Part shown: positions 1 through 15,359 of the stretch, one piece after another
How the letters are laid out: each line of letters starts with the position of its first letter
Numbering within the stretch: position 1 is the stretch's first letter
Source: Candidatus Uhrbacteria bacterium
Lineage (GTDB): Bacteria > Patescibacteriota > Patescibacteriia > UBA9934
Assembly: GCA_963822405.1 (NCBI GenBank)
Contig: CAWGHH010000001.1
Location: 151,296 to 215,295, forward strand
Direction: 5' to 3'
Length of the DNA: 64,000 bases
The notes under the pieces: model-generated
Told to the model about the DNA's origin: nothing
Databases searched by the model: none
What the model saw: only the letters and a program-made list of their open reading frames with translations
Made by a program: the position numbers and the translations under genes

Positions 1-25
1 GAGAAAGAAACCATTTGCTTCGCGT

Positions 26-769
26 TTAGTAAGCGAAGCCGTAACCCGCATGCTCGCAACCGAGCTCGCGGGTGGCCACGTGCCAGAGCGTGGTCATGGC
101 GCTACAATGGCCATCGCTGAAGCGCGACGACTCCTCGTAGACGAAGATTTTCTTCAGGGCAGCGGAGTAGCTGCCGAAGAACTTCGCCTCGCTAGGTTCA
201 CCCGTGGCGATAATCGCCAGGATGTCTTCGGCGGCTTGGTCGGGGTTAAACCCGGTGACCAGACGCTCGCGGCCGCCGTCCGTGGCCACCTTCCAGGCAA
301 GCGCGGTTCGGAGATCTGGAGCCGCCTCGTGGTGGAAACCGCCGTCGGAATCGACGAACCCGATGGCCCGTCCCTCGGTGGCGATTTCGATCGAGAACCC
401 GACCTTCTCCGGGTCGAGACCGATCTCCCGCGCGATGCCGCGATAGCGCAGCGCGCACAGCTGCGCGAGCGGGGTCGGGGACGTGGTCCCCAGGATTGCG
501 GTACCGTTGCGATCACGCAACGTGCCGACCACCATCGGGTCGGCCAGCCCGAACTGGGTCAGATTCGCCCGGATCGGGTGCGCGGTCAGGGCATCCGCCT
601 CCCAGTAGAGGCGCGACGACTCTTCCGCGAGGGCCTTGTACTCGGGGTCGTTTTGGGCCTCGGCCAGCCCAATTTTTTTCTCCTTGGAGATCCGGTCGCG
701 AGCCGTGTAGGCCCGGTCGGAGGCGGTCTTGTACGCCGCGTGCGCGACGAGATATGTATCAATGGACAT
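26..769 (-). CDS. hypothetical protein (247 aa) in GC-rich island
   Basis: Long ORF; ATG at 769 preceded by AAAGGAGAG RBS; no recognisable motif; GC visibly higher than the rest of the window. Confidence 0.5.
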   Translation of the reverse strand: MSIDTYLVAHAAYKTASDRAYTARDRISKEKKIGLAEAQNDPEYKALAEESSRLYWEADALTAHPIRANLTQFGLADPMVVGTLRDRNGTAILGTTSPTPLAQLCALRYRGIAREIGLDPEKVGFSIEIATEGRAIGFVDSDGGFHHEAAPDLRTALAWKVATDGGRERLVTGFNPDQAAEDILAIIATGEPSEAKFFGSYSAALKKIFVYEESSRFSDGHCSAMTTLWHVATRELGCEHAGYGFAY

Positions 770-823
770 TTTCTCTCCTTTCCCGCAATTGTAACCGGCG
801 GGTTCGGGTGATTTTACAGCAGC

Positions 824-878
824 ATCCTCAACGAACGTCTTAAAAAGAATGTAAGTTTTTAAGCAGTTGGTTGAGGAT
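824..878. promoter_or_regulatory. 9-bp inverted repeat (ATCCTCAAC / GTTGAGGAT) around a 37-nt spacer, upstream of the 26..769 gene
   Basis: Perfect IR seen directly at 824-832 and 870-878; sits in the promoter region of a minus-strand gene. Confidence 0.3.
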
Positions 879-929
879 CCCGGCCAGACAATGGTGCATT
901 GTCAGCCGAGATCTTGGGTGCGGTTCCTG

Positions 930-1040
930 CTACCGTTTGGTCAGCAGGAACCAGACAATCTGGGCGTAGGCGAGTGCGATCAAGCACCCGCTTCCGCCGA
1001 AACAGCAGAGGACAAAGATGTCCCCGACCTGGTGGGCCAT
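930..1040 (-). CDS. 36-aa hydrophobic peptide (MAHQVGDIFVLCCFGGSGCLIALAYAQIVWFLLTKR)
   Basis: ATG at 1040 with GGAGG 6 nt upstream; single TM-like hydrophobic stretch; the longer 930..1220 ORF is probably an over-extension. Confidence 0.3.
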   Translation of the reverse strand: MAHQVGDIFVLCCFGGSGCLIALAYAQIVWFLLTKR

Positions 1041-1129
1041 AGCGGCCTCCGTGGTTGTTGTCGAGTGAACGCTCGACGCGTGTTTTGGACTCCGTCGGTT
1101 AATTCCAGACGGCATCCAGCCCGATTTTT

Positions 1130-1495
1130 TTAGCTCTCCAGGGCGGAGAGGAAGAGCGGGAGGAATTCCTCCCACCCTTTTGGGGCGTTCGCCCGCGGTT
1201 CCCGCAGGCACTTGGCCCATGTCTCCGCCGGCGCGGGCCAGTACGGCGCGCGCCCATCACCCAGCACCTGCCGCAACCGGCGGGCGACTTCCTCGTGGAA
1301 GCGCGCCTCTCCGGCCATGTAGACGCCGTGATCCCAGCCGAATTCCGGGCTCGCGGACCAGGAAAAGGCCTCGCCTACGCGAGCGGTTTGCGCCGCCTGC
1401 TGGTGCCGGGTGGCGGCCTCGGCGACCGTCATGAGGCCGTGGTTAACCACGGCCCTCGCCACTGCGGCGGCGATTTCTTTTTCAGTGCGGGCCAT
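1130..1495 (-). CDS. hypothetical protein (121 aa)
   Basis: ATG at 1495 preceded by GGAGG (ttGGAGGccatcATG); the ORF extends to a TTG at 1507. Confidence 0.5.
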   Translation of the reverse strand: MARTEKEIAAAVARAVVNHGLMTVAEAATRHQQAAQTARVGEAFSWSASPEFGWDHGVYMAGEARFHEEVARRLRQVLGDGRAPYWPAPAETWAKCLREPRANAPKGWEEFLPLFLSALES

Positions 1496-1541
1496 GATGG
1501 CCTCCAATCAAGGAACTCGATCGCGCATGAGCTGCGCAGTG

Positions 1542-1594
1542 ATCGGTCCTCATCTGATCACTCAAGGGAGAGAGTCCTTAAGTGATCGGATGAG
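1542..1594. promoter_or_regulatory. Conserved long hairpin in 5' leader, copy A (conserved stem arms, variable apex)
   Basis: Left arm ATCGGTCCTCATCTGATCACTC pairs with AGTGATCGGATGAG (14 bp, one G.U); apex forms an AAGG/CCTT mini-stem; copy B at 2652-2703. Confidence 0.45.
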
Positions 1595-1673
1595 AATCCC
1601 TGAAGTGGTCGAGTGTCGACGAGACTTCAGGGATTTAGAGTGACGTAGTTGCGGAGCGTTAGCCCCACACCCG

Positions 1674-1964
1674 TCACCCACGTTGGTACCAACCCCCGTT
1701 GTTGGTTCGGTGTCCCTCCTTATGGATGGACATGATTTCCTTCCGGAGCTCTTTTCGAGCCACTCCTGGGGTCATGCCTGCTGGCGGAGCGAGTACGAAA
1801 AATTCGTACACCGCTCCGCGGTGGCAGTCCCCGCAGTATCCGTCATCCCAACAGCAGCACATTGTGCCGCCGTGGTTCAGACGGCGCGTTTCCGCGCCTG
1901 TCTGGACGAACCCCTGCGCGAGCAACCGCGCGAGGATAAGGTGGGATCGGGTTTTAATGGACAT
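1674..1964 (-). CDS. Cys-rich small protein (96 aa; CCCWDDGYCGDCH cluster)
   Basis: ATG at 1964 with AGGAGG RBS; dense Cys/His cluster suggests metal binding. Confidence 0.5.
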   Translation of the reverse strand: MSIKTRSHLILARLLAQGFVQTGAETRRLNHGGTMCCCWDDGYCGDCHRGAVYEFFVLAPPAGMTPGVARKELRKEIMSIHKEGHRTNNGGWYQRG

Positions 1965-2150
1965 TTTTCCTCCTTAAGAGGTTGATCGGTATGTCATACC
2001 GAAGCGTATTGATACGATCTCAACGCTCTCAAAATCCACAACCTCCATCATGAATTTTGAGAACGCGCCCTGGTACCGCTGTGTGCGTGGGTACCAGAGC
2101 GAGCGAAATTTTTTGGCAGACTATTCCTGGTCTGCCGGCAGGTACCGCCT

Positions 2151-2378
2151 TTACCAGGCGGTGTTGTTGAAGAAGGACTCCATGTCCTCCTTCGACGCTG
2201 CCCCCATGGGGCAGTCGTGGCTGTCGAGCGCTTCTTTGCGCTCGGCTAAGAGGGACATTCCGTCCCTCTGGAGATTCACCACGGCATACGTGCCGTGGAA
2301 CCCGCGCCACCCACCCGTGAGGGCGAGGAGGACGGGGACGAGCTGGGCGCTCATTCCCCCGTTCGCCACCAGGATCAT
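2151..2378 (-). CDS. hypothetical small protein (75 aa)
   Basis: ATG at 2378, 10 nt downstream of the preceding gene stop (operon-like); contains a CPMG motif. Confidence 0.4.
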   Translation of the reverse strand: MILVANGGMSAQLVPVLLALTGGWRGFHGTYAVVNLQRDGMSLLAERKEALDSHDCPMGAASKEDMESFFNNTAW

Positions 2379-2388
2379 ATGATCCTGG

Positions 2389-2577
2389 TCAGTGGTCTCG
2401 GCCCGGAGGCGCCTTGACCGCCTCGGAGACGGTGGCCGTGGCCACCCCCTCCGGCGGGGCGATGCGGTCGTCGTCCATGACGACGACCGTCGGGGTTGTT
2501 TTTGGGAATTCACGGAGGGCATCCGCGAGGATGCCCTCCACGTTCCGACCATTGAACACCAACAGCTTGGTCGACAT
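2389..2577 (-). CDS. hypothetical small protein (62 aa)
   Basis: ATG at 2577 with GGAGG 5 nt upstream; the listed ORF start at 2643 is a GTG inside the leader hairpin. Confidence 0.4.
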   Translation of the reverse strand: MSTKLLVFNGRNVEGILADALREFPKTTPTVVVMDDDRIAPPEGVATATVSEAVKAPPGRDH

Positions 2578-2651
2578 GGCGACCTCCAATTGAGTGACTC
2601 GATTTTTCCTCATGACTTCCGGCAAACATTTGCCAGCGGTCACGGAATAAC

Positions 2652-2703
2652 ATCGGTCCTCATCTGATCACTCGAACGGAGGATGTTCGAGTAGTCGGAT
2701 GAG
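2652..2703. promoter_or_regulatory. Conserved long hairpin in 5' leader, copy B
   Basis: Same 22-nt left arm as copy A; right arm GAGTAGTCGGATGAGG; apex forms a CGAAC/GTTCG mini-stem. Confidence 0.45.
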
Positions 2704-2806
2704 GAGAGGGGACCAGGCGAAGTGTTCGCTATGTCCCCTCACACGTCACTTTTCTTTTTAGGCTTGCCGGTAGGTTGTGCCAAAGGAAAAGAAAGTGAGA
2801 AAGAAC

Positions 2807-3052
2807 CTAATTGGGACTACCAGTCCCCGCACTCATTGGCGGGGACTTCGAGCCAGCGAGCGTATAGCCCGCCGAGGTTTCCTTTCGTCCCTTCTCGCCG
2901 GTATCCGGCGACGGCCACGTACCAGCGGCCGTCCTGCTGGACGACCGCCCCTGCCTCGGGGCTCTGAGCCAACCGGGCTCAGGGCCATGCCCCGAGGGTC
3001 CGTTTTCGGATCCTTCCTGGGCGGCAAGTTTCATGATTTCGGTTTTTTCCAT
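2807..3052 (-). CDS. Gly/Ser/Pro-rich small ORF (81 aa) behind the shared 67-nt leader; frame uncertain
   Basis: ATG at 3052 immediately after the AGGAGGAAAAA RBS that ends the conserved leader; low-complexity product. Confidence 0.3.
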   Translation of the reverse strand: MEKTEIMKLAAQEGSENGPSGHGPEPGWLRAPRQGRSSSRTAAGTWPSPDTGEKGRKETSAGYTLAGSKSPPMSAGTGSPN

Positions 3053-3055
3053 TTT

Positions 3056-3122
3056 TTCCTCCTTGCACTTTTAGATGCAGGTAATCGGCCCCCGTGTGAT
3101 GGGGTATGGTGTGCCGACCGTC
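3056..3122. promoter_or_regulatory. 67-nt conserved 5' leader element, copy 1 (about 5 mismatches against copy 2)
   Basis: ttcctccttgcacttttagatgcaggtaatcggcccccgtgtgatggggtatggtgtgccgaccgtc; carries the RBS and a CCTTGCA...TGCAGG stem adjacent to it. Confidence 0.5.
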
Positions 3123-3336
3123 TCTGATGAGACGGGTTTAACAAATTCGGAGCAAAGTTGCCTCCGACATAAACTCTCCATCATGAAGAATTTGTGTCGA
3201 AGGACGAGGAAGAGCGGTGCATGTGCTCAATTCCTCGCCTACGGGTGCTAATCATGTCCTTGTTGGACTTCACCGCGCAGATGGGGCACGTGTCAGTTTC
3301 TATAGGAGCTGTAGCCCCAGAAACTGACAAAGAAGG

Positions 3337-3561
3337 CTATTCCTGCGTATTGCCGCAGGAAGGGCAGACGCCGACCTTGTCGGCGTTGCCGAAGGCGCCC
3401 AGATGGGCGCCGCAACTCCAGCACGAAACGTCGTGCTGGATGGTCAAAGGGGGGGCGACTATCACCCCCCCACACTCTGGGCACAAGAGAGCCCCTGAGC
3501 CGTGCCTTATCGGCACGACTCCTGCATTGTGCGTGCAGACCGGGCACTGGATGTGATCCAT
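3337..3561 (-). CDS. double zinc-ribbon small protein (74 aa; four CxxC pairs)
   Basis: ATG at 3561 with AGGAGG RBS inside leader copy 2; CPVC, CPEC, CWSC and CPSC motifs. Confidence 0.5.
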   Translation of the reverse strand: MDHIQCPVCTHNAGVVPIRHGSGALLCPECGGVIVAPPLTIQHDVSCWSCGAHLGAFGNADKVGVCPSCGNTQE

Positions 3562-3563
3562 TG

Positions 3564-3630
3564 TTCCTCCTTGCACTTTTAGGTGCAGGTAATCGGCTCC
3601 CGTATGATGGGGTATGGTTTGCCGACCGTC
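3564..3630. promoter_or_regulatory. 67-nt conserved 5' leader element, copy 2
   Basis: Near-identical to 3056-3122; sits immediately upstream of the zinc-ribbon ORF. Confidence 0.5.
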
Positions 3631-4107
3631 CCGGAAGGGGCGGATTTAGGAAATGGTCGAGCGCATCGGTCACACCGACAGCGTAGTGTCCGCGTCGATG
3701 TCGTTGATTAGGACCTCCGTGTCCTGATCCACTACCAGGCCGAGCCTGATGGCGAGTGCAACCTGTTGACAGGTCGCCAACGTCACGAGCCGGGTGCAGC
3801 CGGCGTGGTGATCGAACGAGAATCGACGCCCGGAGGCATCGACCTGGGGCCCTGCACGGCCCCATCGAGCGCGATCGAGTTCACACAGAGGTTCTCGAAG
3901 GAGACGACCTGGCCGAACACGAAGTTGATACGCATGGTGTCCTCACTCCCGGTTTCCGCCGGGTCGGGATTGTCACGGCTTATAACCAGCTTCGAACTTC
4001 CAGGTGTTGACGATCTCTCGTCAGGGGCTGCGGCAGGTCGAGAAACTCGACTAAACCGACTAACGCCTGAACACCTTTCCGTCCAAACTGGCTACTCGCC
4101 AATCAGC

Positions 4108-4401
4108 TCAGCATTCCAGAACATCCGGTTTGCTGATAATGATTGCTCTCTCTAGAGCTTCGAAGATTTCAAGTGGAGGCTTGAAAACTTTGAAGTACCA
4201 GTGAGATTTGAGGTTAGGCTCGCCGTAGTTTCTGCATTCAGAAACCTCATCAGCAAGCCTGTACGTTTTCGTCAAAAACTTTCGTTTGTGACGCTCTCTA
4301 TGGGTACATTGCGGATGGAGGCCGGAATGTACGCATGGAGAGTTTCTCCGGAACCTCATGCTTGTGCACTTGGCCCGATAAGAATCAAGAAAAGGATCCA
4401 A
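4108..4401 (-). CDS. hypothetical Cys/His-rich basic protein (97 aa) at the GC-shift boundary
   Basis: ORF only; C...C...H...CTH pattern is loosely HNH-like but not diagnostic. Confidence 0.25.
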   Translation of the reverse strand: MDPFLDSYRAKCTSMRFRRNSPCVHSGLHPQCTHRERHKRKFLTKTYRLADEVSECRNYGEPNLKSHWYFKVFKPPLEIFEALERAIIISKPDVLEC

Positions 4402-10768: not shown

Positions 10769-10786
10769 GGTCGTTGTTTTTATGTA

Positions 10787-10808
10787 GGGCCGACATCGAA
10801 GTCGGCCC
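10787..10808. repeat. REP palindrome copy 1 (GGGCCGAC-ATCGAA-GTCGGCCC); a half-copy at 10833-10848
   Basis: Perfect 8-bp stem with a 6-nt loop, TTACTA tail. Confidence 0.7.
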
Positions 10809-10844
10809 TTACTATGGGGATCGAAGAGTAGCAGTCGGCCCTTA

Positions 10845-11651
10845 CTACGAAAGCTGCGCGGGCGTGTACTTGGTTTCTGAGAAGTTTTTGTAGAGGTCTT
10901 CCTCGGCTATGATATTGCCAGTGCGTTTGTCGATTGTTTGCCGGCAAATAGTATTTTTTCGGAAATACTTACCGGTTTTTTCGTCTTGAATAAAGGCGTG
11001 GTCTTTTTCGAAAACGTGATAAGTCACTTTTGGTTCATGTTTAGATCGAATCTCGCCGTGCAGATATTTGCTGTCGAGCCACAAGCGCACTTCGAAAGTT
11101 TCAGCCGTGTCATTTTTGAGAGCGAAGTCGAGATAGTTGTAAAAAAGCGTCGCGCCGGTACCAAAGGGGACGACTCTGTTAGAGTCCGGGAATGCATCGA
11201 AGCTGTGATGATGTCGCTCGTGCACAGTGAGCGGCGAGTGAAGCGCTAACCAGTGAAGCATGTTGGCCACGGCGCAAAGGCCGCCACCAACTCCGCGCAT
11301 TACTTCACCATCAGATAGCATCAATCCCTCAAGGTAGCCCTTTCGCGTGGTGGGTTTCCCAACAAGTCGCCAAAACGAGTAGATCTCTCCGGGCTTAATC
11401 AGGATTTTGTCAGCCTTTTTTAGGGCGAGTGCCAGGTTTGTCACTTTGTTGTATTGCAAGGTCATGTCGACCCCCTCGAGTTTTCGCAAGAGCGTCGATT
11501 CATGGGCGTAGACCTTGTGCGGTAACGGTTTCGCCGCTTTTTTTGTGGCGAATTTTTGGGAACCGAAGTACCAAGACCATTGTCGTTTGAGTCTGAGACC
11601 GGTTACTGCGAGGGGATAGAGGAGGGGGTGAGATTTTCGAGAGATGGGCAT
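10845..11651 (-). CDS. VanW-family protein
   Basis: GVGGGLCAVANMLHW resembles the VanW GGGxCQ motif; start placed at M19 (11651) because the upstream part is REP-derived. Confidence 0.5.
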   Translation of the reverse strand: MPISRKSHPLLYPLAVTGLRLKRQWSWYFGSQKFATKKAAKPLPHKVYAHESTLLRKLEGVDMTLQYNKVTNLALALKKADKILIKPGEIYSFWRLVGKPTTRKGYLEGLMLSDGEVMRGVGGGLCAVANMLHWLALHSPLTVHERHHHSFDAFPDSNRVVPFGTGATLFYNYLDFALKNDTAETFEVRLWLDSKYLHGEIRSKHEPKVTYHVFEKDHAFIQDEKTGKYFRKNTICRQTIDKRTGNIIAEEDLYKNFSETKYTPAQLS

Positions 11652-11659
11652 AGGGGAGA

Positions 11660-11680
11660 GGGCCGACATAGAAGTCGGCG
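11660..11680. repeat. REP copy 2 (degenerate right arm)
   Basis: gggccgacatagaagtcggcg. Confidence 0.6.
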
Positions 11681-11695
11681 AGCAAAGATCTGAAG

Positions 11696-11717
11696 GGGCC
11701 GACATAGAAGTCGGCCC
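11696..11717. repeat. REP copy 3
   Basis: gggccgacatagaagtcggccc plus TTACTAC tail. Confidence 0.7.
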
Positions 11718-11723
11718 TTACTA

Positions 11724-12311
11724 CTAGGTGTCAGTATATATCACTGGGTGGCCGTCGTTCCACCATGTATTTGGGTTGTTGACGATATATTGCCGAATCC
11801 GATCGAGATCACCGTTTGCGCGGGTTATGTGTTCGTAATAATTCGTTTGCCATAATCGCCGATCGTAGTATTTGTGATTGATTTTATGCCATCGAATATA
11901 TTCATTGGTCGAAACCGATTTGAACCATTGCATCACCCGCGGTAAATCCGTCGGCGCCGGCAAATTGTTCGTCGTAGGGGCCGACTTCGATGTCGGCCCT
12001 TTCTCATCAAACATTTCCACAATCCCGTGAAAATGATCCGGCATCACCACGTATTCGTGTAAACGTACATTTGAAAATTTGTTTGGTATGGTTGCCCACC
12101 ATTCGGTGATCATTGAACCGAATGCGGTTAAACGGATGTTGACCAGAGGGCCGACATTGAAGTCGGCCCCTACGCCGCGATTGACGATTACGTCGCCGAA
12201 AATACCGTCGCGGTTGTTTGCGTTTAATGTCACGTAATACAATCCGGGTGTCGAATAATCAAATCCTGGCAATCGTGGATTCTTACGTCCAATTTCTTTC
12301 CATGAAAACAT
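11724..12311 (-). CDS. REP-associated tyrosine transposase (RAYT / TnpA_REP, IS200-like HuH Y1), carrying two in-frame REP insertions
   Basis: HuH motif MPDHFHGIV; Tyr motif RRLWQTNYYEHITRANGDLDRIRQYIVNNP, YafM-like; REP copies 4 and 5 lie inside the ORF without breaking the frame. Confidence 0.8.
   Translation of the reverse strand: MFSWKEIGRKNPRLPGFDYSTPGLYYVTLNANNRDGIFGDVIVNRGVGADFNVGPLVNIRLTAFGSMITEWWATIPNKFSNVRLHEYVVMPDHFHGIVEMFDEKGPTSKSAPTTNNLPAPTDLPRVMQWFKSVSTNEYIRWHKINHKYYDRRLWQTNYYEHITRANGDLDRIRQYIVNNPNTWWNDGHPVIYTDT
11978..11999. repeat. REP copy 4 (inverted orientation, loop TTCGAT) inside the RAYT CDS
   Basis: gggccgacttcgatgtcggccc; translates in-frame as KGPTSKSAPTT. Confidence 0.7.
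12148..12169. repeat. REP copy 5 inside the RAYT CDS
   Basis: gggccgacattgaagtcggccc; translates in-frame as RGVGADFNVGPLV. Confidence 0.7.
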
Positions 12312-12419
12312 AAAACCCCATTCGTGAGATCGATTATGCGTCGATCATTTACGCCTGGGGAGTTATGTATATTGCACCATGTTATTTGGGCGGTTCTGGG
12401 TGGTCTGTGCATAACCGCC

Positions 12420-12441
12420 GGGTCGACATAGAAGTCGACCC
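12420..12441. repeat. REP copy 6 (variant GGGTCGAC arms) abutting the stop codon of the dehydrogenase gene
   Basis: gggtcgacatagaagtcgaccc; gene stop at 12442-12444. Confidence 0.65.
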
Positions 12442-13428
12442 TTACTTCACCGCATTCGGTGGTGTCTTTCCGTCCAGGAACGCCAGAATGTTCTCGGCGG
12501 CGGCGCGGCTCATGGCCTGGCGAGCTTCGATGGATGCGCTGGCCGTGTGAGGCGTGAGGACGACGTTTGGGAGTTTGCGGAGATCGTAGGTATCTGTCGG
12601 ATCGCAGTCGATGAGTGGCTCGCACTCGTAAACGTCCAGGCCTGCGCCGGCGATGTCGCCATGGGCGAGAGCGACGACCAGCGCCTTCTCGTCGATAATT
12701 GGTCCGCGCGACGTGTTGATGATGTACGCCGTCTTTTTCATGAGCTTCAGTTCACGCTCGCCAATGAGATGGCGAGTAGACGGCAGTAGGGGAACATGCA
12801 AAGACACGAAGTCAGCATGTTTCAGGAGCTCGTCTTTTTCCATGAAGGTCGCCCCAAATGCTTGTTCGAATTTTTCGTTTGGTTTGATGTCGTTGTAGAT
12901 GATCTTGATCCCGAAACCGTCATGCATTCGTTTGGCTAATGCCTCGCCAATAGCACCTCCGCCAATAATGCCGAGTGTCTTGCCGATTACGTCGACGCCG
13001 AGGAACATCTTTGGACCCCAGCCCCTATACTTGCCGGCGCGCGTGAAATCATCAGTCTCGACTATTCTATGGGCGAGCGCAAAGATAAGCGCGATGGTGT
13101 GCTCAGCGACGGTTTCCGAAACCTCAGGAGCGCGAGCGTTTGTCACCATGATCCCGCGCTTTTTAGCAGCCTCGAGGTCAATGTTGTCGAACCCTACCGC
13201 GTAGTTCGCGATCATTTTCAATTGTTTTCCGGCTGCACGCATGATCGAATCGTCGATCTTGTCGGTCAGAAGCGAAAGGATGATGTCGACCCCTTTTACA
13301 TTCGATTTTAGAACGCCAACTGGAATATTTTTGTTTTCCTCGTACACTTTTACCTCAATATCTGGTCGAGCCCGGAGCATTTTCAATCCTTCATCTGGAA
13401 TATCACGAGTCACGAAAATCTTTATCAT
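12442..13428 (-). CDS. D-isomer-specific 2-hydroxyacid dehydrogenase (glycerate / hydroxypyruvate reductase-like)
   Basis: NAD-binding GIIGGGAIG; catalytic region ...HVPLLPSTRHLI...; C-terminal TPHTASAS motif. Confidence 0.85.
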   Translation of the reverse strand: MIKIFVTRDIPDEGLKMLRARPDIEVKVYEENKNIPVGVLKSNVKGVDIILSLLTDKIDDSIMRAAGKQLKMIANYAVGFDNIDLEAAKKRGIMVTNARAPEVSETVAEHTIALIFALAHRIVETDDFTRAGKYRGWGPKMFLGVDVIGKTLGIIGGGAIGEALAKRMHDGFGIKIIYNDIKPNEKFEQAFGATFMEKDELLKHADFVSLHVPLLPSTRHLIGERELKLMKKTAYIINTSRGPIIDEKALVVALAHGDIAGAGLDVYECEPLIDCDPTDTYDLRKLPNVVLTPHTASASIEARQAMSRAAAENILAFLDGKTPPNAVK

Positions 13429-13430
13429 AA

Positions 13431-14144
13431 TTACTCAATTTTTGAGAAGTCGAGAGACGCGCGAATAATTTTCCAACCATCTTCCACACCGGCTGGCGCA
13501 CCTTTCCAAAGATCAAATTCTACCTGGGTTACGTTTTTATCAGTCGCGTACCAGATAACTTCATTGATTTGATAATCTATAGCGCCGGAAAAAGCGCCTT
13601 TTGCTATGACTACACTCTTCCCATTGATAACTTCATCTGTGAGGGTCACTTTTTCGTCTGGTGGGTAGGCGGCTGTTACTAGATCTTTAAGTGTTTTGAC
13701 GCCCAGCTGCGGAAATTCGCTTTTTGGACGAGTGTCCATGTTGACTGCAAAAATTGGTCCACCACAGTCAACACACGAATGATCCATGAAACCCGGGCTT
13801 ACTACTACTGAATATGTTTGGATTGAATCTAGTGGAGTTAGTTTTTCTTCTCTCAGCTCGCCAACTGCAGACCAGCCGGCAGGATAGGAAAAACCAGGCC
13901 GACGAGTATTTGCTGAGACGACGATTGTCTTAGTTTTCGCGGCTTCTTCACAGGCTTTAGTAACTTTTTCTGATTCTATCTTGATTGCAGCACCGACCTC
14001 AGCCTTACAAGCCGCGGCAATTGCCACCGAGTCTGGCCTGTTAGCATTAAAGAGAACTATGAGAGCAATGGCGCCAACTGACAAGCAAAGAATTGCGCCA
14101 ATAAGCGAGAAAATTAGAAAGGGAGCTTTTGAGGAGGACGGCAT
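13431..14144 (-). CDS. membrane-anchored hypothetical protein (237 aa)
   Basis: N-terminal TM helix; no recognisable motif. Confidence 0.45.
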   Translation of the reverse strand: MPSSSKAPFLIFSLIGAILCLSVGAIALIVLFNANRPDSVAIAAACKAEVGAAIKIESEKVTKACEEAAKTKTIVVSANTRRPGFSYPAGWSAVGELREEKLTPLDSIQTYSVVVSPGFMDHSCVDCGGPIFAVNMDTRPKSEFPQLGVKTLKDLVTAAYPPDEKVTLTDEVINGKSVVIAKGAFSGAIDYQINEVIWYATDKNVTQVEFDLWKGAPAGVEDGWKIIRASLDFSKIE

Positions 14145-14333
14145 ATTATTTTATTGCAGCTACGGCTGCCTCGGCGCAGGCTTTTGCAATGGTGTTAGCG
14201 TCGACTCTTGTTTGATAAAGCTGAACTAATAATACGAGTACCGCAATAAGCAGACCAAGGTTCCATAAGAGGAACATGATGGCCCAGCCTTTGCGTTTGT
14301 TTGGTTGTTCGGGCATATGCCCCTAAGTATACG

Positions 14334-15359
14334 CTAGCGAGAGGTAAATATCCGAATCTCATCCATTAACTTCTTGTTCGGCCACTTAGTGAGGAGTCCG
14401 GCTTTTGCCCCAACGTGTTGAATAACGCTTTCGGAGTTGAGCGTGCCGATCTGCAAAGCCTCGTCTACAGTTAATCCTTTCGCTAGAGCTGAGACTACGC
14501 CGGAACCAAATGCGTCACCAGCGCCAGTGGTTGAAATTGGGTGAATGTTTCTGGTTCTGGCCGAGTATTTGATTTTTCCCATCGAGGCATACGCCCCGCG
14601 AGGTCCGTCGGTCACCACGTCGAGTGTAGCGGTCGACTTCGATGTCGACCCTTGCAAGGCCACAGCCAGTTCCTTCCCATCTTTGGTTGACAGTCCCGTC
14701 AGTGTCTGTGCTTCTTCGAGGTTCACAAACAACACGTCGACATCTTTCAGGAGTGGTCGAAGTTCAGATGCCTTTGCAAGCTCGCCTCCACCTGGGTTTA
14801 CGGAAATTTTTGCGCCGGTTTTTTTGGCGTGCGCGATAATTTTTGAAAGTAAGGCAATGTTCCCGGATAGGGAAGACACGTAATACCATTTCGCCGAAAG
14901 GGTTTTGAGTGGCACGTCGGCGAGTGAAAACTCGGCGGAGACACCGCGGTGAACAAGCGCGGTTCGTTCGCCAGTCGGTGCTGTTAGTAGCGTGCTGTAG
15001 GCGGTTTGCCCACCTTTAATGCGCTTGACCATGGTCGCGTCGATCTTGTAGCGAGCGAGATCGCGCAGAACGTCGTCTCCCGGTTCGTCATCACCAACTC
15101 GCGATACGATGCCGGTGACGAAACCGAGATTCGCAAACGTCGCGGCGGCATTCGTTGCTCCACCGCCCGTCGACAGAACCACTTGTTCGACGTCAATCTT
15201 TGTTCCGAGGGCGACACACTCGCCAACGCCAGTAGAAAATTTGTCGGATTTGAGGAGTTGGAATTCTTTCGAAAGTAAAAAGACGTCCCGAACAGCGGAA
15301 CCGATGGTGATGATGTCGTACATATGCCCCCATTCTACACCGCGGCATTTCTTTTCCAA
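14334..15359 (-). CDS. PfkB-family carbohydrate kinase (ribokinase-like) with an in-frame REP insertion
   Basis: TTGAGDAFGSGVVSALAKG signature; REP copy 7 encodes GSTSKSTAT in a loop. Confidence 0.8.
   Translation of the reverse strand: MEKKCRGVEWGHMYDIITIGSAVRDVFLLSKEFQLLKSDKFSTGVGECVALGTKIDVEQVVLSTGGGATNAAATFANLGFVTGIVSRVGDDEPGDDVLRDLARYKIDATMVKRIKGGQTAYSTLLTAPTGERTALVHRGVSAEFSLADVPLKTLSAKWYYVSSLSGNIALLSKIIAHAKKTGAKISVNPGGGELAKASELRPLLKDVDVLFVNLEEAQTLTGLSTKDGKELAVALQGSTSKSTATLDVVTDGPRGAYASMGKIKYSARTRNIHPISTTGAGDAFGSGVVSALAKGLTVDEALQIGTLNSESVIQHVGAKAGLLTKWPNKKLMDEIRIFTSR
14630..14651. repeat. REP copy 7 (GGTCGAC variant, inverted) inside the PfkB CDS
   Basis: cggtcgacttcgatgtcgaccc. Confidence 0.65.

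Follow-up and report, generated by a model that had tools for sequence, protein, structure and literature searches.

In-frame REP palindromes within a RAYT gene and a nearby PfkB kinase gene of a Patescibacteria genome

RAYT genes that carry copies of their own REPs, and REPs inserted into ordinary genes, have both been published, so the arrangement considered here is known in kind. [quoted passage not shown] Subclass 2.4 is RAYT group 4 of Bertels, with a median length of 194 aa and the motifs NH[IFV]H, WQ and YIxNNP (Table 1 of PMC6006769), and Haemophilus is given as the example genus for group 4 by Bertels et al. (2017; PMC5581495). As to ordinary genes, the passages of Di Nocera et al. 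(2013; PMC3733652) that deal with such insertions catalogue in-frame GTAG/CGTC REPs and relate them to the Rickettsia RPEs. An earlier note on the present DNA had regarded a transposase interrupted by its own element as notable; in fact, this was published in 2018 as a hallmark of subclass 2.4.

The locus described here lies in a stretch of 64 kb, the whole of which was analysed and is referred to below as the window (Table 1). The RAYT ORF matches Pfam Y1_Tnp PF01797 with an E value of 3e-9. It shares with subclass 2.4 the HuH/Y1 core, WQ and YIxNNP, a variable insertion between the HuH and the following helix, and its length: the earlier note had set its 195 aa against about 160 aa as typical, a comparison that does not hold against the subclass median of 194 aa. 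The REPs agree as well, since they form a small, low-copy family, the flanking copies have GT[AG]G feet and three G-C pairs at the base of the stem, one of them is a double-foot copy (REP1), and a REP lies in frame in the variable region from the HUH strand to the next helix. Several features are unlike the published description. The host belongs to the Patescibacteria; the HuH motif is DHFH rather than NH[IFV]H, in that both histidines and the hydrophobic residue agree and the preceding N is D; a second REP stands before the HUH, at the tip of a beta-hairpin; and, in contrast to inserts considered probably neutral, the in-gene REPs are conserved at the nucleotide level. Because REP5 lies upstream of the HUH and is inverted relative to REP4, the two copies bracket the catalytic codons as an inverted pair. 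Judged by motifs, length and REP traits, the locus is very probably a REPtron, consisting of an HUH/Y1 RAYT of TnpAY1 subclass 2.4 and its cognate GT[AG]G-footed REPs, in a Patescibacteria genome. The closest relatives of the protein also come from Patescibacteria metagenomes, with identities of 81% (P0002), 72% (P0003), 53% (P0004) and 43% (P0005 and P0006); DHFH is shared by the window protein and P0002, and the other clade members, P0003-P0006, have NH[FI]H.

Hundreds of dispersed REPs are present in E. coli. The AF2 model of the window RAYT, calculated on alignment A2 (mean pLDDT 81.9, pTM 0.78), found as its best PDB match 4ER8, the E. coli TnpAREP with a REP hairpin (E 1.5e-5), followed by the TnpA proteins of IS608 and ISDra2. 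The likeness to the E. coli TnpAREP and its REP/BIME elements comprises the HUH/Y1 fold and GTAG-footed REP hairpins that flank the gene. The differences are a sequence identity of about 16% and the E. coli protein's length of 165 aa and assignment to subclass 2.2, which is not among the subclasses listed with REPs inside the gene (PMC6006769).

Table 1 Features of the RAYT and REP locus in window coordinates
Feature	Position	Strand	Description
RAYT / TnpAREP gene	11724-12311	minus	195 aa; Pfam Y1_Tnp PF01797
RAYT HUH motif (HFH)	12027-12035		HUH codons
RAYT WQ motif			residues 154-155 (LWQ 153-155)
RAYT YIVNNP motif	Tyr175 at 11787-11789		residues 175-180
REP1	10784-10812		double-foot copy GTAG-GGCCGAC-ATCGAA-GTCGGCC-CTTAC; intergenic, ~30 nt downstream of the VanW stop
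REP2	11660-11680		degenerate: 3' arm mismatched, foot missing; in the gap from the RAYT stop to the probable VanW start (~11651)
REP3	11696-11721	minus	GGGCCGAC-ATAGAA-GTCGGCCC-TTAC; foot GTAA (minus strand); lies downstream of the RAYT, 2 nt from its stop codon
REP4 (in-gene site 2)	11974-11999	plus	GTAG-GGGCCGAC-TTCGAT-GTCGGCCC; encodes GPTSKSAPT, residues 105-113, coil after the HUH strand
REP4 stem-loop-stem	11978-11999	plus
REP4 GTAG foot	11974-11977	plus
REP5 (in-gene site 1)	12148-12173	minus	GGGCCGAC-ATTGAA-GTCGGCCC-CTAC on plus strand; encodes VGADFNVGP within coil residues 45-55
REP5 stem-loop-stem	12148-12169
REP5 CTAC	12170-12173
REP6	12420-12445	minus	GGGTCGAC-ATAGAA-GTCGACCC-TTAC; GTAA foot holds the 2-hydroxyacid dehydrogenase TAA stop (12442-12444)
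2-hydroxyacid dehydrogenase gene	12442-13428	minus
REP7	14626-14651	plus	GTAGC-GGTCGAC-TTCGAT-GTCGACC-C; in frame in PfkB, encodes QGSTSKSTA, residues 224-232
PfkB-family carbohydrate kinase gene, host of REP7	14334-15323	minus	329 aa from MYDII; Pfam PfkB E 1e-38

The RAYT ORF might be a decaying pseudogene whose frame has stayed open by chance, and the Pfam match, which covers the C-terminal half alone, could be taken in this sense. The match is partial, however, because the inserts interrupt the N-terminal half of the RAYT. The HUH and the WQ and Y..NP columns (W154, Q155, Y175, I176 and P180) are invariant in alignment A2, the fold is predicted with confidence, and dN/dS is 0.14-0.17 over a dS of 0.67-0.77, which indicates purifying selection. 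The pseudogene reading is refuted by this selection analysis and has next to no probability left; purifying selection argues for a working protein.

The REP family was delimited with the pattern GGCCGACWTHGAWGTCGGCC, allowing at most 3 mismatches, on both strands of the whole window. Seven loci were matched, at 10788, 11661, 11697, 11979, 12149, 12421 and 14631, against an expectation of 0.01 in dinucleotide-preserving shuffles. Aligned in one orientation, the copies give the consensus GT[AG]G-GGGYCGAC-N6-GTCGRCCC, with three G-C pairs at the base of the stem and a foot of the classic GTAG type; six of the seven have a GTAG or GTAA foot, REP2 being the exception. Thus, the repeat has the traits by which REPs are recognised: it is short, rich in GC and imperfectly palindromic, and it has a conserved foot and several copies. 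The cluster spans window positions 10784-14651, so that all seven copies lie at most 3.9 kb from the RAYT gene, with REP2, REP3 and REP6 at most 200 nt and REP1 at most 1 kb away from it, and the other ~60 kb of the window gave no match in the same search. In the DNA covered, dissemination of this REP therefore appears to be very limited: the family is tiny in the window, and its 7 copies in 64 kb are all local. A metagenome-wide scan with the pattern, which is uninformative on copy number, gave 23 stretches and met with the family in one related genome alone, in L107, the only stretch with a RAYT and of the same genome as L081; the eight matches that were inspected were loci without a RAYT match, mostly of high GC content, and at least two of them were flanked in a terminator-like manner. 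In the Rfam scan of the window, tRNAs were the only hits, and no match fell on the REPs.

The position of the flanking copies relative to genes could be specified. VanW orthologues are 268-271 aa long, which places the start of the window VanW at ~11651; the mechanical ORF start at 11705 falls inside REP3, and REP2 and REP3 are therefore extragenic. The loop of REP2 contains an ATG. As had been noticed earlier, REP6 abuts a stop codon, and this TAA (12442-12444) belongs to the GTAA foot itself.

The next question is whether the palindromes within genes are true insertions. On the coding strand of the RAYT gene, REP4 and REP5 read ...DEKGPTSKSAPTTNN... and ...VNRGVGADFNVGPLVN..., respectively, and both are in frame, encoding GPTSKSAPT and VGADFNVGP, which confirms the observation of the earlier note. 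By inspection, five of the six reading frames of the repeat are open, the sole closed frame running through the TAG of the GTAG foot; a REP without stops in frame therefore carries little weight alone. In A2, the REP5 segment (site 1) occurs in the 6 close-clade proteins only and is missing from all 22 more distant ones, which agrees with the earlier claim that the insertion points sit between conserved RAYT blocks, and the REP4 segment (site 2) falls in a length-variable region after the HUH. In the model, site 1 (residues 45-55) is the coil that caps a beta-hairpin of strands 39-44 and 56-61, and site 2 lies inside a coil (101-122) that leads from the HUH strand to the following long helix, with local dips of confidence at both. 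For REP7 (LQGSTSKSTATL), which as claimed is in frame in the PfkB gene, five orthologues 75-84% identical and 324-328 aa long (P0123-P0127) are without the segment, and the kinase model (pLDDT 85.8) places the insert at a helix end and in the coil before strand TLDVV, again with a local pLDDT dip. All three segments are thus predicted to lie in loops, and the alignments and models together identify them as true insertions, situated in surface loops and missing from relatives.

RPE-1 elements greatly exceed REPs in length. In being a short palindrome that stands in frame in an ordinary gene and adds loop residues, REP7 resembles the intragenic REPs and RPEs in the catalogue of Di Nocera et al. 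(PMC3733652); the hosts named in its passages on such insertions are genes such as uvrA and uvrB, with no mention there of a RAYT gene as host.

The PfkB site also shows how variable the inserted sequence may be. The insertion is common to the window and L086, the genome with the 89% identical PfkB (P0122), which has the REP-encoded GSTHGSTPT at this loop, and a third protein (P0128, 73%) has GSIHGSTPT there. Three genomes carry three REP variants in the same loop, with hairpin loops ATCGAA, GCACGG and ACATGG and with stem GGGTCGAC vs GGGGTCGAT. On the L081 contig, the two RAYTs, P0002 and P0005, differ in REP type (second locus, L087 10124-10347), and the L081 copy in the PfkB loop (L081 7496-7519) matches the type of the distant second RAYT and not that of the neighbouring one. 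These variants, together with the TCGAC or TCGAG, half of a REP arm, that is already present in the empty PfkB sites, could point to palindromes formed in situ through hairpin-templated or template-switch mutation at half-sites, or overwritten by gene conversion, with no insertion by a transposase. Such an origin leaves the GT[AG]G foot and the clustering around the RAYT unexplained, and a syntenic stretch that has neither a RAYT nor a REP (L085) has an empty PfkB site within 8 kb; we consider it improbable. A comparison of empty and filled PfkB sites for a clean junction or target site was ambiguous, as 9-11 codons stand in place of 4 and the divergence between the sequences is too great. The mechanism of REP insertion therefore stays inferred.

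The age of the RAYT insertions can be assessed from the orthologue series. The 81% identical orthologue (L081/L082) stands in the same gene order, 2-hydroxyacid dehydrogenase - RAYT - VanW. Compared at the codon level, each of the five clade genes (window, L081, L088, L089 and L087) has a REP at both sites, with the GTAG feet facing outward on the coding strand in all five. Four pairs among the window, L081, L088 and L089 gave dS values of 0.67-1.4, and since both sites are filled in every clade gene, the insertions predate these divergences. By this comparison of sequences, the RAYT insertions are ancient and vertically inherited. The recent activity envisaged by the earlier note is not supported, as both insertions are common to five orthologues that are 43-81% identical.

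What has been conserved over this time, the peptide or the palindrome? The stems are GGGCCGAC/GTCGGCCC in the window, L081 and L088, GGGCCGAT/ATCGGCCC in L089 and GGGGTCGAT/ATCGACCCC in L087, and the changes of type in the last two are compensatory and in step at both sites, 170 nt apart. Meanwhile, the site 1 peptide passes from GADFNVGP to GADPCIGP and GVDPCIDP and that of site 2 from GPTSKSAP to GPIHGSAP and GSIHGSTP. As the peptides vary and the palindrome is kept, the constraint acts on DNA or RNA and not on the peptide, and the proposed co-option of REPs as loop-encoding modules is not supported. Selection for peptides such as GPTSKSAPT and GADFNVGP, of which the palindrome would be a by-product, could draw on VGADLCVRP-like peptides that recur in distant RAYTs. 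The changes between orthologues, however, are non-synonymous and yet compensatory in the stem, synonymous sites are frozen, and the same DNA occurs at intergenic positions. Selection for the peptides is largely refuted and very improbable. Every orthologue with the peptide also has REP DNA, so that the case named in the earlier note as decisive against insertion, the same peptide in the absence of REP-like DNA, was not found.

Synonymous sites provide a further measure. The REP codons show no synonymous difference at ~15 synonymous sites, either between the window and L081 or between the window and L088, and the rest of the gene has a pS of 0.50 and 0.55 in these comparisons; the naive probabilities of such an absence of change are ~2e-5 and ~5e-6, to be read with the small number of sites and with the branch that the two comparisons share, so that they are not independent. 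A pair from a second clade, L087 and L113, pointed the same way, with 0/14.7 synonymous changes in the REP codons vs 0.19 and with two indels in the surrounding linker. Some decay is seen as well, in that site 1 of L088 has lost 3 nt of an arm and site 2 of L081 has a G>A change in an arm. Overall, the substitution pattern indicates that the in-gene REPs are held at the nucleotide level and agree both with one another and with the REP type found locally.

Hairpins within the gene are a family-wide feature in a much broader set of relatives. Of 80 loci of RAYT relatives from many phyla, 29-42% identical to the window protein, 78 had recognisable HUH and WQ motifs. Between these motifs, 53 of the 78 have one or more perfect GC-rich hairpins with a stem of at least 8 bp (two in 17), many of them double-foot forms, GTAGGGGC...GCCCCTAC, and 25 have no such perfect linker hairpin. 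Inside the gene, hairpins number 1.76 per kb, as against 0.152 per kb in flanking DNA; in the 78 loci, the part upstream of HUH has four of them and the part behind WQ has none. A hairpin with the same arm was also present outside the gene at 27 of 55 loci, and 17 of 19 two-hairpin genes have an inverted pair. The encoded peptides differ widely over the 78 loci and the hairpins stay perfect, which again speaks against selected peptides. One of the relatives is from Histophilus somni (L025), a Pasteurellaceae species. Pre-HUH GC-rich hairpins were seen in a few distant RAYTs of other phyla (L003 4827-4848, L049 582-659 and L057 369-387, at about query residues 43-63), and the tip of the pre-HUH beta-hairpin may be another point at which insertions recur in this subclass.

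The inverted in-gene copies can also pair with each other. In the minimum free energy fold of 11960-12190, REP5 and REP4 form a single long stem that encloses the HUH-coding segment (-58.6 kcal/mol, z -7.6 as DNA; -99.6 kcal/mol, z -7.2 as RNA). In their inverted orientation and their ability to form one long hairpin, REP5 and REP4 are like the REPINs of Bertels and Rainey; unlike in REPINs, the ~150 nt between them are conserved RAYT coding sequence. Insertion of the whole interval as a REPIN unit was rejected, since relatives without site 1 also have this conserved stretch of RAYT core. Within the interval lies a third perfect hairpin of 8 bp, CATTCGGT...ACCGAATG at 12100-12124; its counterpart in L081, the orthologue with 81% identity, is an imperfect palindrome, and the hairpin is probably due to chance.

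These data allow a reading in which the in-gene pair is functional, i.e., a conserved REPIN-like inverted pair around the HUH segment that would serve, for example, in autoregulation through binding of the RAYT to its own gene or mRNA, or in the joint inheritance or transfer of REP and RAYT. That five orthologues retain both REPs, inverted alike and switched in type together, would agree with such a function, as would the unchanged synonymous sites, the pairing in the fold and the 17 of 19 inverted pairs in distant genes. On the other hand, the copies in L088 and L081 named above are decaying, 25 of 78 relatives are without a perfect linker hairpin, and concerted evolution by gene conversion with other REPs could mimic constraint. 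A functional pair is rather unlikely on balance. The more specific proposal, that the in-gene REPs are a selected inverted pair matched to the cognate type, either as a built-in seed with which REP and RAYT travel together or as a cis element that senses or limits its own gene, is doubtful.

The reading that we prefer, a subclass 2.4 REPtron, would explain the distribution of the copies as follows. By analogy with the biochemistry of E. coli TnpAREP and of IS200/IS605 elements, the RAYT would recognise the hairpin and the foot on single-stranded DNA and would cut and rejoin it, and this reaction might seed new REP copies, preferentially near the RAYT's own gene. Copies in coding DNA would then pass through a filter of survivorship, in which any copy would be lost that adds a number of bases not divisible by three, uses the closed frame or lies outside a surface loop. 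Such a filter would explain why two copies are found in loops of the RAYT and another, 2.3 kb away, in a loop of PfkB. The upkeep of the hairpins could come from RAYT/REP recognition or from conversion, by which the in-gene copies would be kept at a 'master' sequence, or from a role that the hairpins have in their own right.

The locus is mainly a further example, from Patescibacteria, of a known arrangement. It goes modestly beyond the published description in the conserved pre-HUH site, with an inverted pair around the catalytic codons, and in the apparent maintenance of in-gene REPs as nucleic-acid hairpins. The orthologue series (window, L081, L088, L089 and L087/L113) allows in-gene REPs to be followed over time. 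If hairpin maintenance holds in larger data, it would bear on why domesticated RAYTs and REPs persist together, and if the pair is indeed selected, neutral self-insertion in subclass 2.4 would become a functional part of the system.

Several additional observations concern the neighbourhood of the locus. In L086 (11238-11819), a RAYT of only 37% identity occupies the slot between the dehydrogenase and VanW and has in-gene hairpins of its own, GTAA-GGGAGGGTC-TTA-GACCCTCCC-CTAC, twice; the flanking REPs there are of the window's GGGTCGAC type. This disagreement between PfkB and RAYT similarity among genomes suggests replacement of the RAYT or recombination at a fixed locus. In L083, a gap of 100 N lies between the 2-hydroxyacid dehydrogenase and VanW (3745-3844), exactly at the RAYT slot of the scaffold; L083 was therefore rejected as an empty genome without a RAYT, and L085 was used instead. 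The repeats may break assemblies, which makes the absence of a RAYT in draft MAGs untrustworthy. Directly after the dehydrogenase stop, L085, the relative without REPs, has a hairpin with a T-run like that of an intrinsic terminator (10914-10975), at a place occupied by a REP in the window (12420-12445), L081 and L086, and REPs may stand in for terminators after this gene.

A separate GC-rich segment was observed at the beginning of the window. Positions 1-4000 have a GC content of 0.59-0.61 vs ~0.48 elsewhere and contain densely spaced perfect hairpins of 7-13 bp whose sequences are unrelated (~1435-3864); the part at ~800-4200 contains short ORFs only, none above 190 aa, and no Rfam match. 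The equivalent end of the syntenic locus in L081 (17200-20250) has the same GC-rich, hairpin-packed character.
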